A stretch of 64,000 nucleotides of DNA, taken from the NCBI GenBank assembly GCA_044229535.1, contig JBGASU010000001.1, positions 1,406,969 to 1,470,968 on the forward strand, in the 5' to 3' direction. The notes beneath the pieces were generated by a model. That model saw only the letters and a program-made list of their open reading frames with translations. It was not told the DNA's origin and did not search any database. Positions 7,741-62,055 of this stretch are shown one piece after another. How positions within the stretch are numbered: position 1 is the first letter of the stretch; the number at the start of each line of letters is the position of its first letter. The translations under genes and the position numbers were made by a program. Source of the DNA: Candidatus Midichloriaceae bacterium. GTDB taxonomy: Bacteria; Pseudomonadota; Alphaproteobacteria; Rickettsiales; Midichloriaceae.

Positions 7741-10700
7741 ATGAACTTGCAGGAATTTAGAGCATTAGACGAATTTCAAAGATTTGATTTTTTAAAAGAA
7801 CTGGCAGGCGATGAACTCAGAGCTTTTGCTAGGGAAGTGGGTGCTGAGCAAGGAGCATCTCCCATGTTAGCAAGGATTTCTGCTAGTCCAAATTCAAACG
7901 ATGCAACTATAAAAAATCAATTAAAGATAGAATTGAGAAAGCTAGGCCTTACTTTTCAAGAGAGGCAGGCTGATATGCAGTTTGATGTTGCTGAACAACC
8001 TCAAGAGCAATTTAGTTGGGAAAAAATTAAAAGAGCGCCGTTCATTGAGCGAAAGCCAACACCGATTGATGAAGCCACAAAAGATGCTTTCTTACAGCAA
8101 TTTTATCAAGGTGAAGTGGTTGATGTTGATACAATAAACCCACTAAGCAATATTCAGGCAGTAAGAGCGCAGGTCGAATTGGTTTGCCAAAAAATGGTTG
8201 GCTATGGCTTTAGAAATTTTAATGACTTGAAAGATAAGTTTGCGGATCTGGCATTTAATATTGAAAGTGCAGAACAGCGTCAAAGAGATTTTTCCAATGC
8301 CAAGCAGATTAAGCAAGTAATGGAGTCGATTTTATACTTTGTGGAAAATACTCCTGAAGTTTCAAGAAGAGAGCTTATTGCAAATTACAAAGATACTAGA
8401 TTTATATGTGGTGATGGGACGCTGCAAAACCTAATTGATATTTTTAGCGAAATGCAATTAGGTAAAGCTGACATAGCTGCCTATGTAGCGTGGGCGAAGA
8501 GGAAAGTAGTTATTGATACGTTCTTGCCAATGTATGAACAAAATTTCTTTCACGAAGCTGGTTTAATTTACCGTATAGGAAATGAAAGGCATTATGTTGA
8601 TTCATTAATTAACGCAGTTGCTGATGAATTTGGTCTGGTAGTTCGAACACAAGATGAGGACAGGTTTATTAAAGACGCATCTAGGTATAGGGAGTTTCTG
8701 CTGGGTGAATTGAACCGAGTTTTTGCACAGCCTGAAGTGCTTAAAAACATTTTTGGCTTGGTAGTCGCTAAAATTTCTTCAAACCTTGAAAATGGCATAG
8801 ATAAGATACTGCCTGTCCAAAACCAAGTGCAAGATTTTTTAGGTAAGCTGGGAGTAGGTGATAAGTATAATTATTTCCATTTGGTGAATTGTAAAGAGAA
8901 TGGACTTAAGGATGACTTCAAAAGGGTTGTAGAGTCAATAGTTGCAAATTACATGCATGAGCAGCGTGTTATCAAGGTATCTAACATAAAACATATTTGC
9001 CAATTATTGAAAATTGCTGGCTCTTATAATTCGCAGTATAGGCAAGTTATTACCAGAGAAAATTTCCCAGAAGACGCGGATAATAACAAGGGATTTGTTA
9101 ACTTTATTTTAATTCAAAATATAGAATTAGATGAAGCTCAATTTGGAACTAAAAGCCCAATATTATATTTTGCGAGAAAAAATAGGAATATTTTTGCAGA
9201 TTTTAATCTTCCCTTTGTATTCATGCAAAGGCTACTGCAAGAAGCATCTGCTGAAGAGTTAAAAGACATTAATATTCCAGCTGACATTTTAAGATCTTCT
9301 CTCTTCTATGTAAAAACTCCAGAGCAAATTGATGTCTTAATTGCTAAGGGTGCTAATATTCAAGAAATTTCTCTTAATGGCGGCAATGCTACACGGGATG
9401 CAGCATTAAGAGGAGAAAGAGCGATAGTAGATAAATTTGCTGAACAGGGAATAGCCCCAATGAATGTTTTTGAAGGCCATGAAGATGGCGTTGACCAAAG
9501 ACGGGAAGAGGCCTTAATAAATGGCATTGTTGCAAATCAAGAAATTCTGCGACACATCGAAGATGGTGTTCCTAATATTTGTAGAATTGTTAAGTGTGGC
9601 ATGGTAAATGCGCTGCGAAAAGCTTTGGAGTTCCCAGAAGGTAGAGACGCATTAAAACTGAAAGATAAAGATGATAACGTAGCATTGCACTATGCAGCGC
9701 GCCACACAAACCCAGAATTGTTTTTGGAGATAGTAAAAACTACTGAAGGGAGAAGAGCAATAGGAGCTTATAATAAAGATAATTTCACTCCTGTTGAAGA
9801 ATTAATAATTCAGGATAGAGTTGATTTAATTAATGAGGTTCTCAAAACGCCCGAAGGTACGTTGCTTATAAATGGTGGTAACGGTAATAAATCTTTTGTT
9901 GAGCTATCATATGAACATAAGAAATATAGTTATCTTAAAACTTTATTGAAATGCAATATCTCTTTAGATCCAATCCTGAAATACAAAAACAAAGGTATGG
10001 TTCAGGATGCTGTGGATCATGAGGATTTTGAAGTATTTGGAATGCTTATGGAGCGTGCAGAGCTGAGAAACAGGTTGTTTCAATTAGAGCAGGATTCTAT
10101 ACATAAGCTGGATCAGCAAGGTTTACTAAAGCCAATATTAGAAAAATATTGGTTAGAAATTTTGGAAGGTATAGATCCTGAAGATATGGCTTTTTTTGCA
10201 GAATTCGTTTTAAAGTTTGGTTTATTAAATCAAGACATAGATGAGAAACATTCTCATGTGCTCTCAAGATTTTTACTATCGTTACAGAATTTTTATTTTC
10301 CAATGACAGATGATCTTGATAAAGTTATTAGCTTGATTATGTCTAACAAAGAGGTGCAAAAATTAGTTGTTACGGTCGACCCTCTCAGACCTCATGAGAA
10401 TGTTTTTAAACGTTTAGTAGCAGCAGGCGCCACTCAAGCTGTAGAGGCAATTCTAAATGATGATTTTCTAAGAAGGAGTCTCTATTTAACAGATGCTCAG
10501 TGCAATACTTTCCTTCATAATGTAGAGTGTAGTGAGGGCGATCCAAGTGCTTTCAATGATTATTATTTAGAAAGTTCAGAACAACAAGACAGTTTTTTTG
10601 ATTGTTTACGAAGCATAGCAGATAACCCGCATTTAAAAGCAGCTTTGCCAAGTCTTCTTTCAACCAGAAATGGTATTGGGTTTACGCCTTTACAATCGGC

Positions 10701-11289
10701 TTTAGAAGACATGCAAGAGTTGTTTCTAATCTTATTAGATTGGAGTGTGAGGCATGAGAACGTTCATTCGTTGCATATTCCAGACAATAAAGGCTGTACA
10801 CCTTTTTATAACGCCTTATTAAAATTGTACGAGATGCATATAATATCTCAGTTTGTTGACGCAGATGCAAGTTTGGTTGATTCGATTTTTGATCATGTAG
10901 ACAACGAAAGGGTGAATGTTATTTCAAGGATACTTGATCAAGCAGGCAACGAAGTCGCCTTTGGTAATGTTTTTGAATTGGTGAAAGACAATCCAATACT
11001 AATGAGAAAATTTATTGACTCTGTTGGATATGAATCAGGGTGTTCTTCGCTTGAATATGCAAGGAGGTATGACATGCCAACAATTGTAGATGCGATATTA
11101 ACTTTTGCTCAAGGTACAAGTCTTGGTTTCTCATTGCCTCCAGCTTCAGTAGAAGCGCAGGCCAGCGCATCTACTGCTTGGATTCCTGATGTTGATGCTG
11201 AAGCAGATGTTGAAATTGCTGACCCAGTATTGAATGAGATGAACAGTGATGAGTTGGAAAAAGCTCGTAGCAAACGTTCTAGGCATTGA
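7741..11289 (+). CDS. Large ankyrin-repeat protein, candidate secreted effector
   Basis: 1182 aa. ANK-like repeats include DKDDNVALHYAARHTNPELFLEIV, NGIGFTPLQSALEDMQELFLILL and DNKGCTPFYNALLKLYE. No signal peptide. Acidic region followed by a basic C-terminus (EKARSKRSRH). Confidence 0.8.
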   Translation: MNLQEFRALDEFQRFDFLKELAGDELRAFAREVGAEQGASPMLARISASPNSNDATIKNQLKIELRKLGLTFQERQADMQFDVAEQPQEQFSWEKIKRAPFIERKPTPIDEATKDAFLQQFYQGEVVDVDTINPLSNIQAVRAQVELVCQKMVGYGFRNFNDLKDKFADLAFNIESAEQRQRDFSNAKQIKQVMESILYFVENTPEVSRRELIANYKDTRFICGDGTLQNLIDIFSEMQLGKADIAAYVAWAKRKVVIDTFLPMYEQNFFHEAGLIYRIGNERHYVDSLINAVADEFGLVVRTQDEDRFIKDASRYREFLLGELNRVFAQPEVLKNIFGLVVAKISSNLENGIDKILPVQNQVQDFLGKLGVGDKYNYFHLVNCKENGLKDDFKRVVESIVANYMHEQRVIKVSNIKHICQLLKIAGSYNSQYRQVITRENFPEDADNNKGFVNFILIQNIELDEAQFGTKSPILYFARKNRNIFADFNLPFVFMQRLLQEASAEELKDINIPADILRSSLFYVKTPEQIDVLIAKGANIQEISLNGGNATRDAALRGERAIVDKFAEQGIAPMNVFEGHEDGVDQRREEALINGIVANQEILRHIEDGVPNICRIVKCGMVNALRKALEFPEGRDALKLKDKDDNVALHYAARHTNPELFLEIVKTTEGRRAIGAYNKDNFTPVEELIIQDRVDLINEVLKTPEGTLLINGGNGNKSFVELSYEHKKYSYLKTLLKCNISLDPILKYKNKGMVQDAVDHEDFEVFGMLMERAELRNRLFQLEQDSIHKLDQQGLLKPILEKYWLEILEGIDPEDMAFFAEFVLKFGLLNQDIDEKHSHVLSRFLLSLQNFYFPMTDDLDKVISLIMSNKEVQKLVVTVDPLRPHENVFKRLVAAGATQAVEAILNDDFLRRSLYLTDAQCNTFLHNVECSEGDPSAFNDYYLESSEQQDSFFDCLRSIADNPHLKAALPSLLSTRNGIGFTPLQSALEDMQELFLILLDWSVRHENVHSLHIPDNKGCTPFYNALLKLYEMHIISQFVDADASLVDSIFDHVDNERVNVISRILDQAGNEVAFGNVFELVKDNPILMRKFIDSVGYESGCSSLEYARRYDMPTIVDAILTFAQGTSLGFSLPPASVEAQASASTAWIPDVDAEADVEIADPVLNEMNSDELEKARSKRSRH

Positions 11290-55880: not shown

Positions 55881-57230
55881 ATGCTTGGAGTATTGAGTGC
55901 GGTTACTAGTATAGCAGGTACATTATTTGGTTTTGCAACAAATAAGGAATTAAGAGAGTGGGTTGCAAATGCAAGTAATGTGGCTTTTAATATCCAAGTT
56001 GCAGATTTCTCAAAAGCAACTTTGTATTTTGATGATGTCCACCTACACAAAGTATATAGCGATACTAAGGGTAAAGTTTTAAGTTCGACAAAAATTGATG
56101 ATACGAATTCGCTAGACGTTATATGCAGAAAAGTAGCGTTAAAAACGGTTAATAATAGATTCGATTTACCAGATAATAAAGATCATAGTACATACTCACT
56201 TGTATCGTATCTAATAGACCAAACACTTGAATACGTTAAAAATATAAAGACTAGCCCACAAGATAGATTAGCTTATGTTACTTATGTTTCTAATTTACTG
56301 AAGCATTTTTCTAAGGATACAAATTTTAAATTTGATTTAACTGATGCTGATATTAAAGCAATAGATGAGATAGCCAGATTAAATACCAAAAATTTGAGAT
56401 TAATATCTAGTGATAGAGTTAGAGTTATCAAATTATCTAGGATAGAACAATCTCAGCAAACAAAAATTTTAGACTCAGATAGATTTAAAAGAATATTCGT
56501 GGCATTGGGTTCTAAAGATTTTGAAACTTCATCTATGCCAAATGTATATAGCGCAAGAGATGTTATAGGAGTTGGAGGAACGCCACTTGATCAATACTTA
56601 TCAATGATTCATAAAGATACGGTTAATAATAAGTATGAGTTTGGCACGCTTTTGAGTTGTTTGCTTGATATATTAAATAAATTTTTAACAGATTCAATTC
56701 CTCAAAATAAAGCTGCTAATGCTACAGATATTTTTCAAAAACTGATTACTATCATAATTGATAAAGATATTGAGGTGACCGATAATGATAGGAGAATGCT
56801 TGGAGAAGTGAATATTAAATTAGCCAAATACTTGGGAGCAGGTCTGGTTATGAATTTAGATAAAACTGCTGGCATCGATGCAAGTATTATGGTTGATAAC
56901 AGTGCAGGAGTGGGATCTAGAGTTAGCCAATCAAATCTAGCCAGCAGTGATCATGGTAAGCAAGTTGGCAGTGTAGATGAAGGAAGTGATATGAGGATCG
57001 CAGGAGTCCCTTATTCCGCACCCGCTGTAGCAACAGTATCGTCATCTGCATCAGCAGCTGTGTCTCCTCAGTTTGCAGCTTCAGCGAGTGCGGCTACTGG
57101 TCAAGCAGCTAATATAGCTGAAGGATCAAGAGTTGATACAGATGCATCGGTAATAGCTGATACAACTGTAACCCAGCAGCAAAAGGTCAATGTATGGAAT
57201 AATAACAAAAAAGGACAGCAGTCAAAATAG
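55881..57230 (+). CDS. Hypothetical 449-aa protein with a Ser/Ala-rich C-terminal region
   Basis: Long ORF with no recognisable domain. C-terminal SAPAVATVSSSASAAVSPQFAASASAATG followed by the basic tail NNNKKGQQSK. Confidence 0.55.
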   Translation: MLGVLSAVTSIAGTLFGFATNKELREWVANASNVAFNIQVADFSKATLYFDDVHLHKVYSDTKGKVLSSTKIDDTNSLDVICRKVALKTVNNRFDLPDNKDHSTYSLVSYLIDQTLEYVKNIKTSPQDRLAYVTYVSNLLKHFSKDTNFKFDLTDADIKAIDEIARLNTKNLRLISSDRVRVIKLSRIEQSQQTKILDSDRFKRIFVALGSKDFETSSMPNVYSARDVIGVGGTPLDQYLSMIHKDTVNNKYEFGTLLSCLLDILNKFLTDSIPQNKAANATDIFQKLITIIIDKDIEVTDNDRRMLGEVNIKLAKYLGAGLVMNLDKTAGIDASIMVDNSAGVGSRVSQSNLASSDHGKQVGSVDEGSDMRIAGVPYSAPAVATVSSSASAAVSPQFAASASAATGQAANIAEGSRVDTDASVIADTTVTQQQKVNVWNNNKKGQQSK

Positions 57231-57249: not shown

Positions 57250-57741
57250 TTATTTTACTACATCCCCAATTTTAATACCCAAGCTTTCAGCTTCACCAGC
57301 ATTAAGTTCAATTACGTATTTGACTTTGATATCTGAAGTTATTGATTTCAAACTATGGGGTTGTTGGTTGGGGTGAATTTCTGCGATAGTGCCAGTCTCA
57401 TCAACCATTATTATATCAAGGGGAATATAAGTATTCTTCATCCAAAAATGAGCTCTATCCACGTATGGAAAAATGAAAATCATGCCATGTTTTGGTTCGA
57501 GATATTTTCTGTACATTAATCCGCGCTGCAATTCTATACTTGTTCTTGCTTCTTCCAAGTATAAGGTTGTTTCTTCATCCATTGAATTCAGTATAAAGTA
57601 TTGGATATATTTACGCTCTGGATTTGATGGATTATAATAAAAGTTAGCCAGCAAGAAACAAAGTATTGCAAATAATAAAAGCAAAAACACCCTATATTTA
57701 TGTGCCAAATCCATTAACTGTATAATTGTTTTACAAACCAT
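57250..57741 (-). CDS. DUF192-domain protein
   Basis: 163 aa. N-terminal TM and GMIFIFP...FWMKNTYIPLDIIMVDETGTIAEI. Confidence 0.8.
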   Translation of the reverse strand: MVCKTIIQLMDLAHKYRVFLLLLFAILCFLLANFYYNPSNPERKYIQYFILNSMDEETTLYLEEARTSIELQRGLMYRKYLEPKHGMIFIFPYVDRAHFWMKNTYIPLDIIMVDETGTIAEIHPNQQPHSLKSITSDIKVKYVIELNAGEAESLGIKIGDVVK

Positions 57742-57781: not shown

Positions 57782-57892
57782 TTATTGCCCAAATAGCGAG
57801 TCCATAAGTTTTTTATTTTCTACGGTATGCAATTTCATGTAAGCAACAGCAGGTGAAGCAGAACGTTCGCGTCCGATATATCTTGCACACGT
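57782..57892 (-). pseudogene. Displaced 37-codon relic of the sucA 3' end
   Basis: The minus strand reads TCARYIGRERSASPAVAYMKLHTVENKKLMDSLFGQ*, against the live sucA C-terminus TRAKYIGRERSASPAVGYMKLHTVESKKIMDALFG* (58994-59101). An in-frame TAA lies three codons upstream (57899-57901) and there is no start codon. Confidence 0.85.
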
Positions 57893-58066
57893 AATTATTT
57901 ACAGAATTATCTGCCACCTTATGCGGAGAAAAAATTGAAATAAAATTTATGATATCATTGTTAATTAAAATGATAAATAATACTATTTGTGGACTGTATT
58001 ACTGTGGCACATGCTTATTATATATGAAAAGAACGCAGGTCTTTAGCAATTTAGAAGTGGAGAAAA

Positions 58067-58933
58067 GTGATGCAAAATGAAACTTTATTTTCAATTCTAC
58101 AATTAGCGTTTCTAGCTATTAAGAAAGTTTTATCTAAGCCTTTGCTGCTAATAAGCTATATAATAATTATATCGGCATTAATCGGAATTATTTATATTGG
58201 TAGTGATTTATCTGGTCTGACAAAAAGCTATGATAAGGGTTCTGATTTAGCAGTGATGACAGTAATATTACTTTGGTATTTAGTATTCATAGCTATCTTA
58301 GCATTTGCATACGTTTTTTCTCTTGTTGTTATAAAAAATAATAATGATTTTAGTCAATACCTCTCTAATTTATGGTCTTATATTGTAAATCCAGCATATT
58401 TTTTAAAGACAATATTTTTTGTTTTTAGAAGAAGTATGAAATTTAGTATTGTATTCATACCTGTGTTCATTCTATCCCTTATGATTAGTTTTCTTCTCGG
58501 TCTGTTTGCGGTTTTTGGAAAGGTAAGTTGGAGTGTTTGGGAATCGGTATCCAATTTTTCAGGGTTGCTGTGTGTAATTGTATTTGCAATAGTTTTTTAT
58601 AGGCACGTTAGAGGTATGCTAATAGTTCCTTACGGAATAATTGGGGGTAGTGATTATGAGGATTCTTCAAATGAAAGCGCTAAATCTATGAAAGGTAGTG
58701 AGCACGCTTTTTTTTATATACTTATACTTTTCTTTGCGCTTATTATTTGTTATGGATTTGTTGTCATTTTTGACCCAGACTACGTGGTGCAACCTTACGA
58801 ATTTAATAAACCCAAAGTGCCTTTGTATGAGAATTACTCACTCATGGTTGGCATATTGCTTTGTTCCACTTTCTTCTTAATTTATTCCACGATGATAAAT
58901 CTTTTGTACTTTAAAAGACGTAGTGCTACATAG
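58067..58933 (+). CDS. Multi-pass membrane protein of unknown function (cargo between the sucA 3' repeats)
   Basis: 288 aa with about 6-7 hydrophobic segments. GGAGAAAAGTGATG start context. Confidence 0.6.
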   Translation: MMQNETLFSILQLAFLAIKKVLSKPLLLISYIIIISALIGIIYIGSDLSGLTKSYDKGSDLAVMTVILLWYLVFIAILAFAYVFSLVVIKNNNDFSQYLSNLWSYIVNPAYFLKTIFFVFRRSMKFSIVFIPVFILSLMISFLLGLFAVFGKVSWSVWESVSNFSGLLCVIVFAIVFYRHVRGMLIVPYGIIGGSDYEDSSNESAKSMKGSEHAFFYILILFFALIICYGFVVIFDPDYVVQPYEFNKPKVPLYENYSLMVGILLCSTFFLIYSTMINLLYFKRRSAT

Positions 58934-58993
58934 ATGTCAATCGCCGTCAACCAATAAACTACTTATATATTTAAGTTTGCTAATGCAAACTGC

Positions 58994-61837
58994 TCATCCA
59001 AACAAAGCGTCCATGATTTTTTTGCTCTCTACAGTGTGGAGCTTCATATAACCAACAGCAGGTGATGCAGAGCGCTCACGGCCAATGTATTTAGCACGCG
59101 TTGATTTGTGTTTCACAGCTTTTAGAACTTTCTCAATTCTTGGCTCAACGAAATAGAATGCTCCCATATTTTCATGCTCTTCTTGGCACCAAATTACTTC
59201 TGCATTTGGATATTTAGCTAACTCCATACCTAATTGAACTGTAGGGAATGGATATAATTGCTCCATTCTAATTAATGCTACATCTTGTCTGCCAAGTTCT
59301 TGGCGTTTTTCAAATAAGTCATAATAAACTTTACCAGAGCATATAACTGCTTTGGTAACTTTGTTTGCGACTACTTCTTTATCACCAAGTACTGGTTCAA
59401 ACTTCGTGCCTTCTTTCATTTCTTCAAAGGTTGATACAGCAAGCTTATGACGCAGTAACGATTTGGGTGACATTACAACTAATGGTTTTCTGAAGTTGCG
59501 TTTTTGTTGTCTGCGAAGCGCGTGGTATATTGAAGCAGGTGTTGTGCAATTCAACACTTGAATGTTATCACTAGCGCACGATTGTAAGAATCGCTCAAGC
59601 CTTGCAGAGCTATGCTCTGGGCCTTGTCCTTCATATCCATGTGGCAGCAGCATTGTGATCCCAGACATTCTTAACCACTTCGCTTCACCAGAAGTTATGT
59701 ATTGATCAATTACAACTTGTGCACCATTTGCGAAATCACCAAATTGAGCTTCCCAAATAGTTAGTGTCATTGGGTCTGCATAGCTATAACCATATTCAAA
59801 TGCTAGTACTGCAAACTCAGAAAGGTTACTGTTATAAATTTCTAACTTTGCTTTTTGGCTGTCTGAAAGATTATTTAGAGGAGCAAATTCTTGTTGTGAT
59901 TCTTGATCAAACAAAACCGCATGACGATGCGAGAAAGTGCCTCTCTTTACATCTTGGCCAGTCATTCTGATTGGGAATCCTTCGTCTAGAAGTGATGCGA
60001 ATGCAAGTGCTTCACCAGTTCCCCAGTCAATATCTTTGCCAGTTTCAATCATTTTTTTCTTAGCTTCTAATTGGCGCAGAACTTTTGTATTGATGTTGAA
60101 TTCTTTTGGATACTCACAAAGTTTATGTCCAAGCTCTTTTAGTTTTGAAGCCTTAACTCCCGTTGCCACTTCTTCTCTATCAACTTTTGCAGGCTCGAAT
60201 TGACTCCAGTTTGCAGATAACCAATCGGCTTTATTTGGTTTATAACCAACTGATAATGTAAATTCTGCATCAAGCTTTTGTTTGAAAGTTTGTTGCATTG
60301 TTTCAAATTCTGTTGCGGAAATAAGTCCTTCGGAGATTAATTTATTTGCATAAACTTGTGCTGGGTTTTCTTTGTTTTTAATTGCAGTATACATAACTGG
60401 TTGTGTGAAGAAAGGTTCGTCACCTTCGTTATGTCCATATTTTCTATAGCCAACCACATCGATCACTACATCTTTTTTGAATTTAGCGCGGTATTCAGAA
60501 GCTAACTTACTTACAAATACAACAGCTTCGGCATCATCACCATTCACGTGGAAAATTGGCGCGCCTATGAATTTTGCAATATCAGTAGAGTAAAGCGTAG
60601 ATCTAGAATCTTCAGGGTTAGTTGTGAAACCAATTTGATTATTAGAAACAACATGCATCGTGCCACCCGTGTGGTACGCTTTGAGTTGCGATAATGCAAG
60701 TGCTTCCATAACTGATCCTTGCCCTGCGAATGCAGCATCACCATGGACTAAAATTCCTAGTACTTGAGAACGGTCAGCATCTTTTCTTAGATCCTGTTTA
60801 GCGCGAACGCGGCCTAACACAACTGCATTAACAACTTCTAAGTGCGATGGGTTAGGGGTTAAGGTTAAGTGTACTTTATGTCCATCAACTTCTATATCCG
60901 ATGATGTGCCTAAGTGGTATTTTACATCGCCTGGGATACCCATATTATCAGGGAACGCAAGCTCACCTTTAAATTCAGAAAGCATTGCATGATATGGTTT
61001 GCCCATAACTTTTGTAAGGGTGTTTAATCTACCTCTATGAGCCATGCCTAGTACGTATTCACGTACGCCAAATTGTACTGAGTGTCTGACGATTACTTCC
61101 ATACAAGAGATTGAGTTCTCTAATCCTTCGACGGAGAAACGTTTGGTTCCTGGGAATTTTGTATGCAAGAAGCTTTCAAACATTTCGGCTTCCATTATGT
61201 CTTGTAGAGCTGTCTTTTTTTCCTCTGTGCTGATTGAGACGGTGCCAGCGGTTAATTCTAATTTACGTTGTAACCAATGGCGCTCTTCAGCACTTTCAAT
61301 ATGCATGAATTCAGCAGCAACACGGTTACTATATATTGATTTCAATGTGTGTACTAAATCCCTAAGTGGAGCGCTTTCTACTCCAAATGTTCCGCCAAGA
61401 TGAATTGTTTTATCTAAATCTGCATCAGAAAATCCATGAGATTTATAGTCTAATTCTGCGTGGTATGCAGGTTGCTTTAAGCCTAATGGATCAAGTGCAA
61501 CGTCGGTATGTCCATAAGTTCTATATGCGTTAATTAAGTTTGCAGCTTTTAAGCTACTCATCATATCTTCAGTGCTTGCCACTGAATTAGCAGCTTTTGC
61601 TGGTTTTGCTTTTAACTCCTCTTTGTCAACAGCACCAATTACTCGGTTTTTATACGGCTTCCATGCAGCACCGCTGGCAGCTTTTTGTACATTAGCTGCA
61701 TTGTCATTTAAACTTTTGAAATAATTTTGCCATTCTTGGTCTACAGACGATGGATCTTGCGAGTATTTGCTATATAGTTCTTCAATGAAAACTGCATTGC
61801 TTCCAAATAGATAAGATGTATTCTTTAAATTTGACAT
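58994..61837 (-). CDS. sucA: 2-oxoglutarate dehydrogenase E1 component
   Basis: About 947 aa counted from MSNLKNTSYLFGSNAVFIEELYSKYSQDPSSVD, which is a typical SucA N-terminus. The track ORF extends to 61948. ThDP-binding GMAHRGRLN and HGDAAFAGQG, plus LLPHGYEGQGPEHSS. Confidence 0.95.
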   Translation of the reverse strand: MSNLKNTSYLFGSNAVFIEELYSKYSQDPSSVDQEWQNYFKSLNDNAANVQKAASGAAWKPYKNRVIGAVDKEELKAKPAKAANSVASTEDMMSSLKAANLINAYRTYGHTDVALDPLGLKQPAYHAELDYKSHGFSDADLDKTIHLGGTFGVESAPLRDLVHTLKSIYSNRVAAEFMHIESAEERHWLQRKLELTAGTVSISTEEKKTALQDIMEAEMFESFLHTKFPGTKRFSVEGLENSISCMEVIVRHSVQFGVREYVLGMAHRGRLNTLTKVMGKPYHAMLSEFKGELAFPDNMGIPGDVKYHLGTSSDIEVDGHKVHLTLTPNPSHLEVVNAVVLGRVRAKQDLRKDADRSQVLGILVHGDAAFAGQGSVMEALALSQLKAYHTGGTMHVVSNNQIGFTTNPEDSRSTLYSTDIAKFIGAPIFHVNGDDAEAVVFVSKLASEYRAKFKKDVVIDVVGYRKYGHNEGDEPFFTQPVMYTAIKNKENPAQVYANKLISEGLISATEFETMQQTFKQKLDAEFTLSVGYKPNKADWLSANWSQFEPAKVDREEVATGVKASKLKELGHKLCEYPKEFNINTKVLRQLEAKKKMIETGKDIDWGTGEALAFASLLDEGFPIRMTGQDVKRGTFSHRHAVLFDQESQQEFAPLNNLSDSQKAKLEIYNSNLSEFAVLAFEYGYSYADPMTLTIWEAQFGDFANGAQVVIDQYITSGEAKWLRMSGITMLLPHGYEGQGPEHSSARLERFLQSCASDNIQVLNCTTPASIYHALRRQQKRNFRKPLVVMSPKSLLRHKLAVSTFEEMKEGTKFEPVLGDKEVVANKVTKAVICSGKVYYDLFEKRQELGRQDVALIRMEQLYPFPTVQLGMELAKYPNAEVIWCQEEHENMGAFYFVEPRIEKVLKAVKHKSTRAKYIGRERSASPAVGYMKLHTVESKKIMDALFG

Positions 61838-62055
61838 AATTTTTCTCTGAAATTTCTGGGCTCTTCTTATTACAGAATAGCGGTAAAGTCTAGTTAAATC
61901 AATAAGAGCTATGTATTTAGTGCTATCTAGCTTAATGCCTAGATTCATTTGGTAAATAAATTATGATTGTTTTATGAAAAACAATGGTATTTTAACATAT
62001 GGAATTTCTTTATAAGTGGTGATCTTCAACTACTTCTTCTAATTAACGCTTTTGT

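Follow-up and report, generated by a model that had tools for sequence, protein, structure and literature searches.

A displaced sucA 3' end beside an operon fragment: a probable recombination scar between two gene orders in a genus of uncultured Holosporales-like bacteria

Genes and features at the sucA 3' end

The analysed stretch of DNA, here called the window, has a length of 64,000 nucleotides. The sucA gene for 2-oxoglutarate dehydrogenase E1 covers 58994-61837 on the minus strand, with 947 codons and a stop codon. It was taken from the list of open reading frames and from homologues with the four E1 Pfam domains. The mechanical reading frame extends to 61948; relatives start at MSNLKNTSY. 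The closest homologue is 95% identical, and the 2844-nt coding sequence aligns without gaps to eight relatives. An intergenic spacer (58934-58993, no strand), colinear with the spacer in the related loci L081 and L086, separates sucA from memb (58067-58933, plus strand). This intact open reading frame codes for a 288-aa multi-pass membrane protein. Residues 166-280 match PF10110 (GPDPase_memb) marginally, with 32.1 bits above a gathering threshold of 29.6. The protein has only 3 close homologues among 5.8e9 proteins and is fast-evolving (omega 0.46-0.67). PHROGs and NCBIfam yielded nothing for memb, the operon gene X described below or a 449-aa neighbour. Rfam at E <= 1 gave just two sub-threshold chance matches.

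Upstream of memb lies X' (57901-58080, plus strand), a pseudogene fragment with the last 59 codons and the stop codon of gene X. In tblastn, residues 230-288 of the L086 protein match 57901-58077 with 73% identity; full-length X has 288 aa in L086. The stop codon of X' overlaps the start of memb, the same as in the intact operon. A 43-codon reading frame with an ATG start (57949-58080) is retained within X' in the window and in L081, and the L081 fragment has an in-frame stop. The differences between the two fragments are spread 9/5/8 over codon positions, matching the neutral expectation. X and memb showed no detectable relationship that would suggest paralogy.

Next follows a displaced copy of the sucA 3' end, the relic (57782-57892, minus strand). 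By codon alignment it consists of 35 codons, a Gln codon and TAA. It is the displaced 3' end of a sucA allele and a pseudogene fragment without a start codon. The junction between X' and the relic (57893-57900, no strand) was defined by placing the junction sequences side by side. The homology to X ends at ...AATTCTGTA and that to sucA starts at ACG. Between them, some 7-8 nt (AATAATT) match neither gene, and microhomology amounts to a few nt at most. The joint cuts X at about codon 229. It is identical in the window and in L081 and was therefore formed once.

The DUF192 gene (57250-57741, minus strand; Pfam PF02643, E 1.5e-30) starts 40 nt after the relic. In relatives with an empty site, it starts 6-101 nt downstream of the sucA stop codon. 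The window DUF192 is unusually divergent, with ~51% amino acid identity to all others. A look-up of its exact sequence gave no match. A metagenome scan with a DUF192 alignment retrieved generic DUF192 genes with <=51% identity and no relative of this genus among the matches listed. A GTDB genome scan with sucA found nothing above 52%, hence no synteny information.

Divergence of the two sucA ends

The last 35 sucA codons recur 1.2 kb downstream of the live copy, as the earlier note had reported. A repeat search identified 57789-57892 and 58998-59101 as a 104-nt direct repeat with 75% identity and a spacing of 1209 nt. The repeat search and the codon alignment placed the live copy, on the minus strand, at 58998-59101. 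BLASTN within the window gave an E value of 1e-13 for the pair and no third copy. In the frame of the relic, a stop lies two codons upstream of where the homology begins, and ATG, GTG and TTG starts are absent, in agreement with the earlier description.

Aligned over 35 codons, the live copy and the relic share 78 of 105 nt and differ at 27. Two further differences lie beyond, in the stop codon, with TGA in the live copy and CAA in the relic. The relic stop codon is now Gln, with TAA next. The differences are distributed 5/3/19 over codon positions 1/2/3, and this third-position bias is significant (chi-square p = 2e-4). The differences are purely synonymous in sixteen codons; in six others the residue changes, from live copy to relic R to C, K to R, G to A, S to N, I to L and A to S. 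The earlier count of six changes stands, whereas the view that all are conservative does not: R to C is non-conservative, as is G to A at a glycine that is invariant in the C-termini inspected (the first 60 of 120 listed homologues). The Nei-Gojobori method yielded Sd 20.0, Nd 7.0, a saturated pS of 0.83 and a pN of 0.087. The longest exact run comprises 13 nt (TCACCTGCTGTTG) and codes for the SPAVG motif. SPAVGY is kept in most of the 60 homologues inspected, and its glycine is invariant in 60/60. Past the stop codon, an extended alignment of the two copies was AT-rich and unconvincing. A scan for consensus promoters and terminators found fewer sites than in shuffled sequence, leaving a promoter in the relic unsupported.

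Degenerative changes are present in both known relics. The L081 relic has a frameshift from a 1-nt deletion, the window relic has G17A and the change of the stop codon to Gln, and R2C is common to both. The relic is evidently a dead pseudogene piece of a once-functional sucA allele.

The neutral X' fragment provides a clock of 0.066-0.12 substitutions per site per lineage. Had the two copies started identical, 4-7 third-position differences would be expected on this clock, against 19 observed (P 4e-8 to 2e-4). These 19 are inside the range of 7-20 seen in functional pairs of the genus. The 8 differences in positions 1 and 2 are in line with the X' clock and compare with 0-4 in functional pairs. 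These values indicate that the relic diverged as a functional sucA allele under coding constraint and was not decaying in place, which upholds the earlier suggestion of two independently evolving functional alleles.

The relics of the window and L081 each have 16-27 differences in 105 nt from every sampled live allele. No relic donor can be named by nucleotide distance, because third positions are saturated even against outgroups of 75% identity. The differences between the two relics are also biased to third positions (5/1/14). Patching from functional alleles would account for this bias and is partly shown by an L090-like tail and a shared GAT codon. The original parents of the two copies cannot be named because later recombination and gene conversion are evident.

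Gene orders in related genomes

Four related lineages (L085, L089, L090/L091 and L092/L093) have an empty site, in which DUF192 follows sucA directly. This is the empty state that the earlier note had predicted from its reading of the locus as an insertion scar. A membrane gene lies beside sucA in three loci: the window, L081 and, in a different form, L086. The four empty lineages share the gene order sucA, DUF192, kdp, here order A. In L086, sucA is convergent with an operon of ALAS, X and memb, so that sucA meets memb tail to tail, followed by X and ALAS (order B). The window and L081 are hybrids with order B on the left side and order A on the right side. The left side runs from sucA with its full 3' end over memb to the final 59 codons of X. 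The right side resumes order A from 105 nt before the sucA stop codon, so that the relic precedes DUF192. In a single BLASTN alignment (window 59300-57900 and L086 12538-13894, 80% over 1414 nt), the window is colinear with L086 from sucA via memb to about codon 230 of X. There is consequently no junction on the sucA side. In sucA and in a second gene (7741-11289), the window is closest to L086.

The ALAS-X-memb operon is intact in L094 and L095, which share their contigs with the empty sites L089 and L085. In these two genomes, it lies 140-200 kb from sucA; in L086 it adjoins sucA. ALAS, the 5-aminolevulinate synthase of haem synthesis, matches TIGR01821 at 607 bits. The window memb is homologous to the gene after X in L094 and L095 (hhalign 99.8%; BLASTP 33% identity, E 1e-31) and thus appears to be an orthologue or xenologue of the third operon gene. 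The insert is, judged by these homologies, the tail of a conserved chromosomal operon.

Integrases, recombinases, att cores, tRNAs and phage-family genes were absent from the three occupied loci. The search covered the Pfam annotations of every gene up to 10 kb on either side in L081 and L086. In the window, it covered Pfam on the five open reading frames flanking the site and PHROGs on memb, the 449-aa reading frame and the L086 X. The interval had been described as holding a single membrane protein gene and no integrase; the second part holds, and the last 59 codons of X have to be added to the first. A palindromic element between sucA and DUF192 of L081 and L090 has no copy in the window. 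The gene sucB is absent from the window according to tblastn with the L082 sucB, as noted before. It is also absent around sucA in 7/7 genus-level relatives. Its absence is a genus trait unlinked to the insertion.

Recombination between lineages

L081 and its sister L090, which has an empty site, are closely related over most of sucA. Their divergence at fourfold sites rises from 0.096 in nucleotides 1-2500 to 0.38 in the last 345 nt (Fisher p 6e-6). Past an A-run in the relic, L081 matches L090 again through DUF192 (dS 0.13). The divergence profile shows L081 to differ from L090 by a homologous-recombination tract of ~1.5 kb with one crossover inside the relic. The memb genes of the window and L081 have a dS of 0.295, far under the divergence of their sucA genes. 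The cassette memb of L081 is of the window/L086 type (78% amino acid identity to the window memb) and not of the type of its own clade. Only L081 has GAT at codon 9, in its live copy as well as its relic, a sign of gene conversion. Mosaic sucA alleles show that recombination between lineages does occur.

Origin of the locus

The locus is probably a recombination scar that joins two gene orders of one genus of uncultured Holosporales-like bacteria (probability about 0.68). It would have arisen when one end of a fragment recombined homologously and the other was joined illegitimately, or through a single crossover with a circularised fragment, and would then have spread by homologous recombination. 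The sequences themselves show the repeat, the polymorphic site, the operon source of the insert, the cut in X, the common joint, the dead relic and the ~1.5-kb tract in L081; how the first event took place and which of the two sides was the resident one are inferred. A DNA fragment with order B would have recombined with an order-A chromosome. The fragment would have paired with its homologue at one end, in sucA, and its other end, which broke within X, would have been joined illegitimately 105 nt upstream of the recipient sucA stop codon, as in homology-facilitated illegitimate recombination (HFIR). A single crossover by a circularised fragment would be an equivalent route. The 3' end of one allele would have kept sucA intact, while the 3' end of the other allele was displaced and pseudogenised in front of DUF192. 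The hybrid is flanked by homology, with sucA on one side and the relic and DUF192 on the other, and would then have moved among lineages by homologous recombination. Such movement and gene conversion from the live copy would keep patching the relic with functional-allele sequence. If the window genome belongs to the L086 clade, the import may instead have comprised the relic and the divergent DUF192, a scenario that would call for a second event or two illegitimate joints.

A more speculative and rather doubtful extension is that X' and memb form an integrase-free cassette carried along by an essential gene. Its homology arms, namely the live sucA 3' end and the relic, would let it enter any relative with sucA next to DUF192 by homologous recombination, and each transfer would rewrite part of the relic from the new host allele. 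The fast-evolving memb would be the selected cargo, and the 105 nt of sucA before DUF192 may preserve DUF192 expression signals.

An ancestral occupied state, hybrid or L086-like, with empty sites resulting from repeated repeat-mediated deletion or allele replacement, is unlikely. Direct repeats of 104 nt can mediate deletion and restore an intact sucA. The direction of the ~1.5-kb exchange between L081 and L090, a gain in the former or a cure in the latter, is unreadable from the sequences, and Ile24 and Asn26 of the L081 relic also occur in the sucA tails of L085 and L092. However, a complete ALAS-X-memb operon is retained elsewhere in L085 and L089, and its memb has only 33% identity to that of the cassette. 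The truncated copy was thus never needed, and the full operon does not look descended from it. The last 300 nt of the L090 sucA are not L081-like, contrary to repeat-mediated deletion, and the L081 cassette carries a memb that is foreign to its own clade. Four losses would also be required instead of one origin and one transfer.

The earlier note favoured a site-specific integrative element that targeted the sucA 3' end, carried a replacement end and has since lost the integrase and most cargo. The topology fits: an intact target is followed by an insert and then by a displaced 3' end as a direct repeat. Relatives have empty as well as occupied sites, the two copies resemble diverged functional alleles, and the 13-nt exact match could in principle be a crossover core. 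This match is expected without an att function because it codes for the conserved SPAVG motif. No integrase, recombinase or phage family is found in or near the insert of the window, L081 or L086, and the proposed integrase or att remnants did not materialise. One boundary cuts X at an arbitrary codon within its reading frame and the other boundary does not exist, L086 being colinear. The insert is a chromosomal operon tail, from the operon with ALAS that is conserved in genomes with an empty site, and this origin largely refutes the model, which is now very unlikely. Least probable of all is a local duplication of the sucA 3' end in one genome, with copies identical at birth and neutral decay of the downstream copy: the copies are close and in direct orientation and the relic has degenerative changes, but the third-position differences far exceed the X' clock and the truncated operon piece between the copies is left unexplained.

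The recombination scar is a cleanly resolved natural case in which the gene order changed at the end of an essential gene without killing the gene. With an overlap of 105 nt between the parental arrangements, sucA remains whole and a dated scar is left behind. Endosymbiont-like organisms are often taken to recombine rarely. Here, lineages at the species level within such an uncultured genus exchange kilobase-sized tracts, and in one case both crossovers are mapped. The locus is also a caution for genome scanning. A gene, an insert and a displaced gene end alone are no evidence that an integrative element was at work; this question is decided by what the insert contains and by how the genes are arranged in relatives.

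Comparison with known systems

The event is ordinary in kind. HFIR and single-crossover integration are known in Acinetobacter, S. pneumoniae, P. stutzeri and E. coli (PMC3240628; primary references via PMC5361080). From substrates with one-ended homology, HFIR products arise less often than duplications of 109-950 bp of the homologous segment, which form via a single crossover of a circular molecule; such duplications were present in most E. coli recombinants (PMC3240628). The duplication of 105 nt in the window is just below this range. As in HFIR, one end is anchored by homology, here in sucA, and the other end is joined without homology, here inside X, with foreign or non-allelic DNA trapped beside the anchor. 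The anchor side is uninterruptedly homologous to the donor arrangement in L086, and the other end is illegitimate with minimal homology. The differences concern the setting. The event is deduced from natural genomes of an uncultured, probably intracellular bacterium and not from an experiment. The alleles of donor and recipient were already ~20-25% diverged. The trapped DNA is neither a resistance marker nor alien but a core-operon piece of a related lineage.

For T6SS and Rhs arrays, HFIR has been put forward as the source of displaced 3' ends (PMC5361080). The orphan ends of Rhs, CDI and T6SS genes are similar in that the incoming 3' end takes the live gene, while the old end persists downstream, startless and in direct orientation (PMC5361080). 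Unlike the polymorphic toxin tips with immunity genes in these systems, which are selected for diversity, the sucA locus concerns a housekeeping enzyme with near-synonymous orthologous tails, no immunity-like gene and a decaying relic. The two sucA tails differ at 6/35 residues, and both align with the tails of all homologues.

Elements that insert in a gene end and bring a replacement end include dusA-associated integrative elements, SXT/R391 in prfC and streptococcal ICEs in the 3' ends of housekeeping genes. They share with the sucA locus the intact target, the displaced end as a direct repeat flanking the insert and the coexistence of empty and occupied sites. In contrast, the sucA locus has no integrase and no element-specific ends, and its insert is a chromosomal operon fragment. 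At one of its boundaries a gene is truncated; the other matches the natural gene order in a relative without a break.

Displaced sucA 3′ end

The sucA gene ends at 58994 on the minus strand. Its last 35 codons (live copy, 58998-59101, minus strand) have a displaced second copy, the relic (57789-57892, minus strand). A repeat search of the window presented the pair as a 104-nt direct repeat with 75% identity; BLASTN within the window gave an E value of 1e-13 and no third copy. Aligned by codon, the copies differ at 27 of 105 nt, with 5/3/19 differences at codon positions 1/2/3. Sixteen codons differ only synonymously, and the Nei-Gojobori method yields Sd 20.0 and Nd 7.0 (pS 0.83, pN 0.087). 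Six residues change from live copy to relic: R to C, K to R, G to A, S to N, I to L and A to S. The stop codon of the relic has become Gln, followed by TAA. In its frame, the homology is preceded by a stop at a distance of two codons, and a start codon was not found. The earlier note had described this repeat accurately, apart from calling all residue changes conservative: R to C and G to A are not, and the latter affects a Gly that is invariant in all 60 homologues with inspected C-termini. The mechanically called sucA ORF (58994-61948, minus strand) has 984 aa; alignment with relatives places the true start at MSNLKNTSY, yielding 947 aa. The spurious N-terminal extension overlaps the upstream gene and also occurs in some database entries of relatives (982 aa).

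Gene order in relatives

The window is AT-rich and has many ankyrin-repeat genes. Among named organisms, 'Holosporaceae bacterium Namur' has the closest sucA (64%), and a GTDB genome scan with sucA gave no match above 52%. The protein database contains a genus-level sucA cluster at ≥90% amino acid identity, and its contigs were fetched for gene-order comparison. Nucleotide identity over the sucA CDS (2844 nt) is 92.6% between the window and locus L086, 95.7% between L081 and L090, and 84-88% for the remaining pairs.

Three arrangements were observed. In four lineages (L085, L089, L090/L091 and L092/L093), sucA is followed after a spacer of 6-101 nt by the DUF192 gene and then by the kdp operon. 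This is the empty site that had been predicted from the window. L081 has the order of the window: sucA, antisense membrane gene, relic and DUF192. Its relic has a 1-nt deletion after an A-run, causing a premature stop. In L086, L087 and L088, sucA is followed by the antisense membrane gene, with a complete gene X (288 aa) and an aminotransferase upstream of the latter; DUF192 was not found within 10 kb.

A GC-rich perfect hairpin (TGTCATTCCCGC...GCGGGAATGACA) lies in the spacer that separates DUF192 from sucA or from the relic (L081:14155-14195, L090:~9500-9590); the hairpin spacer in L090 has 41 nt extra. A second repeat of the type 'GTCATTGCGAGG...CGACGAAGCAATCC' is placed after DUF192 at these loci. 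Both look like small palindromic mobile repeats. The window has no copy of the first hairpin.

The earlier note had also pointed out the absence of sucB from the window. This gene is missing near sucA genus-wide, a trait of the whole genus unconnected with the insertion. The order sucA-sucB-lpdA is still present in L082, a relative at 75% identity. In L086 (region L086:12903-15803), a 5-aminolevulinate synthase (ALAS), which consumes succinyl-CoA and glycine, is encoded beside sucA, and glycine-cleavage genes are located near sucA in L081, L089 and L090. The grouping may represent a functional succinyl-CoA/glycine neighbourhood or be coincidental.

Origin of the insert

The window and L086 share a single aligned block, from inside sucA through memb, the gene of the 288-aa membrane protein (58067-58933, plus strand), to window position 57900. 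Positions 57901-58077 encode residues 230-288 of the L086 X protein with 73% identity. What had been taken for intergenic DNA is therefore the 3′ end of X, a pseudogene fragment of 59 codons named X'. As in the intact X-memb pair, it ends in a stop that overlaps the start of memb. In L086, X is preceded by the ALAS gene (TIGR01821, 607 bits). The contigs with the empty sites L089 and L085 also have homologues of X, 140-200 kb from sucA. The order there is ALAS, X and a third gene overlapping the end of X, which is homologous to memb (hhalign 99.8%; BLASTP 33% identity, E 1e-31). Colinearity with L086, the X tail and the distal ALAS-X-memb operons thus identify the insert as the cut-off end of an operon conserved on the chromosome rather than foreign cargo. 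At the three occupied loci (window, L081 and L086), searches in and around the insert detected no integrase or recombinase, no tRNA, and no Rfam or PHROG family. Of the earlier interpretation, the insertion scar and the two once-functional alleles are retained; the reduced integrative island is replaced by an operon tail lacking an integrase.

The ends of memb are conserved and a central stretch (residues ~136-167) is hypervariable, with a 13-residue deletion in the L086 copy. For a gene that is intact and has been retained in three lineages, the overall omega of 0.46-0.67 is unusually high. X' holds a 43-codon ATG ORF (57949-58080, plus strand) that is intact in the window and L081. The stop of this ORF overlaps the start codon of memb; the ORF may have been kept to couple memb translation.

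Joint and age of the relic

At the joint, X homology stops at ...AATTCTGTA and sucA homology starts at ACG, codon 35 counting back from the stop; the ~7 nt in between match neither. The joint is exactly the same in the window and L081. Both relics also have the R-to-C change in the second codon (R2C), a state found in no live allele. The identical joint and the common change mean that the joint arose a single time. The sucA side of the insert has no junction.

X' adjoins the relic, shares its history since the joint was formed, and was used as a clock. Between the window and L081, X' has 22 differing sites (codon positions 9/5/8), and the L081 copy has an in-frame stop; X' is in neutral decay. 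On this basis the clock reads roughly 0.07-0.12 substitutions per site in each lineage. If live copy and relic had been identical at birth, 4-7 third-position and 5-8 first-plus-second-position differences would be expected. Observed were 19 and 8, respectively (third-position P between 4e-8 and 2e-4). Functional alleles of different genus lineages differ at 7-20 third positions, a range that includes the relic count, and at 0-4 first-plus-second positions; the excess of the relic is about that predicted by the clock. The functional-like third-position count and the clock-sized excess argue for the relic being a fragment of a once-functional, already diverged sucA allele that has decayed for about as long as X'.

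Decay is visible in both relics, but states absent from all live alleles are few. Besides the R2C of both relics, the window relic has G17A, I29L, two hits in a Leu codon (still Leu), another synonymous change at a third position and, adjoining the 35 codons counted, the change of the stop to Gln; the L081 relic has one synonymous site and the frameshift. Identity between window and L081 is 81% for the relic and 87% for X'. The relic is no better conserved than X', and selection acting on the relic itself is not apparent.

Exchange between lineages

Compared with its empty sister L090, L081 has differences at 9.6% of the fourfold sites in nt 1-2500 of sucA and at 38% of those in the last 345 nt (Fisher p 6e-6), with dense differences starting at nt 2553. 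From the A-run at codons 27-29 on, the L081 relic equals the live sucA tail of L090, including the unusual AGT-TAA ending. The L081 DUF192 is again L090-like (dS 0.13). The divergent sucA end and the L090-like relic end and DUF192 delimit a cassette tract of ~1.5 kb separating both loci, with the left crossover in sucA and the right crossover inside the relic. The L081 memb shares 78% identity with the window, and the resident memb of the wider L081 clade (L095) only 33%. Between window and L081, the memb dS of 0.295 is far below the sucA fourfold-site divergence of 0.47 (uncorrected). These values indicate a foreign origin of the L081 cassette. An Asp codon GAT, present only in the live and relic copies of L081, indicates gene conversion between them. 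The relics of window and L081 differ by 5/1/14 at the three codon positions; this third-position bias is attributed to patching by conversion-type events. Two more dense patches (nt 537-636 and 1275-1452) distinguish the sucA of L081 (L081:10106-12949) from that of L090 (L090:6653-9496), which are 97-100% identical elsewhere. They suggest extra short recombination imports.

Resident side

Besides sucA, a second gene (7741-11289, plus strand) has 83% nucleotide identity to the L086 gene beside the ALAS cluster; by both genes, the window appears close to L086. Its product (1182 aa, no family match) is an orthologue (78% amino acid identity) of the 1207-aa protein encoded next to the L086 ALAS-X-memb cluster. 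In the window, the gene is located 47 kb from sucA, inverted and with no ALAS beside it; the chromosome is rearranged there too. Relative to L086, the window is rearranged, and ALAS and the 5′ part of X were not found in its 64 kb.

The window DUF192 (57250-57741, minus strand) is an outlier that shares ~51% amino acid identity with the other five genus members. It differs from these by a dN of 0.41-0.45, in comparison to at most 0.26 among the others, although sucA is 95% identical. Either it evolved much faster since relocation or it stems from an unsampled, more distant lineage. The window relic is saturated relative to every allele compared. Given the closeness to L086, the outlier DUF192 and the saturated relic, the window may belong to a genome of L086 type into which the relic-DUF192 side was brought, possibly by a second event.

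Convergent with DUF192 is a 449-aa ORF (55881-57230, plus strand) without Pfam, NCBIfam or PHROG match; the GC content of its 3′ end is 0.44 versus 0.30 in the surroundings. It takes the place of the kdp operon, which follows DUF192 in all relatives with a DUF192 locus (DUF192 of L086 was not found).

Proposed recombination with one-ended homology

At the locus, homology is unbroken on one side, the other side has an illegitimate joint within an unrelated gene, and a stretch of the anchor is duplicated. This anatomy is the one that recombination with one-ended homology generates. An L086-type arrangement would have recombined with a sucA-DUF192 arrangement, and only recombinants with a whole sucA and an expressible DUF192 would have survived. 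In Escherichia coli, substrates homologous at one end yielded true products of homology-facilitated illegitimate recombination (HFIR); the commoner outcome was a 109-950 bp duplication of the homologous segment by a single crossover of a circularised molecule (PMC3240628). HFIR has also been proposed as the way in which 3′ ends of T6SS and Rhs genes became displaced (PMC5361080). With this anatomy and these precedents, we read the locus as a recombinant, which would make it a new, well-resolved case of a known type of event.
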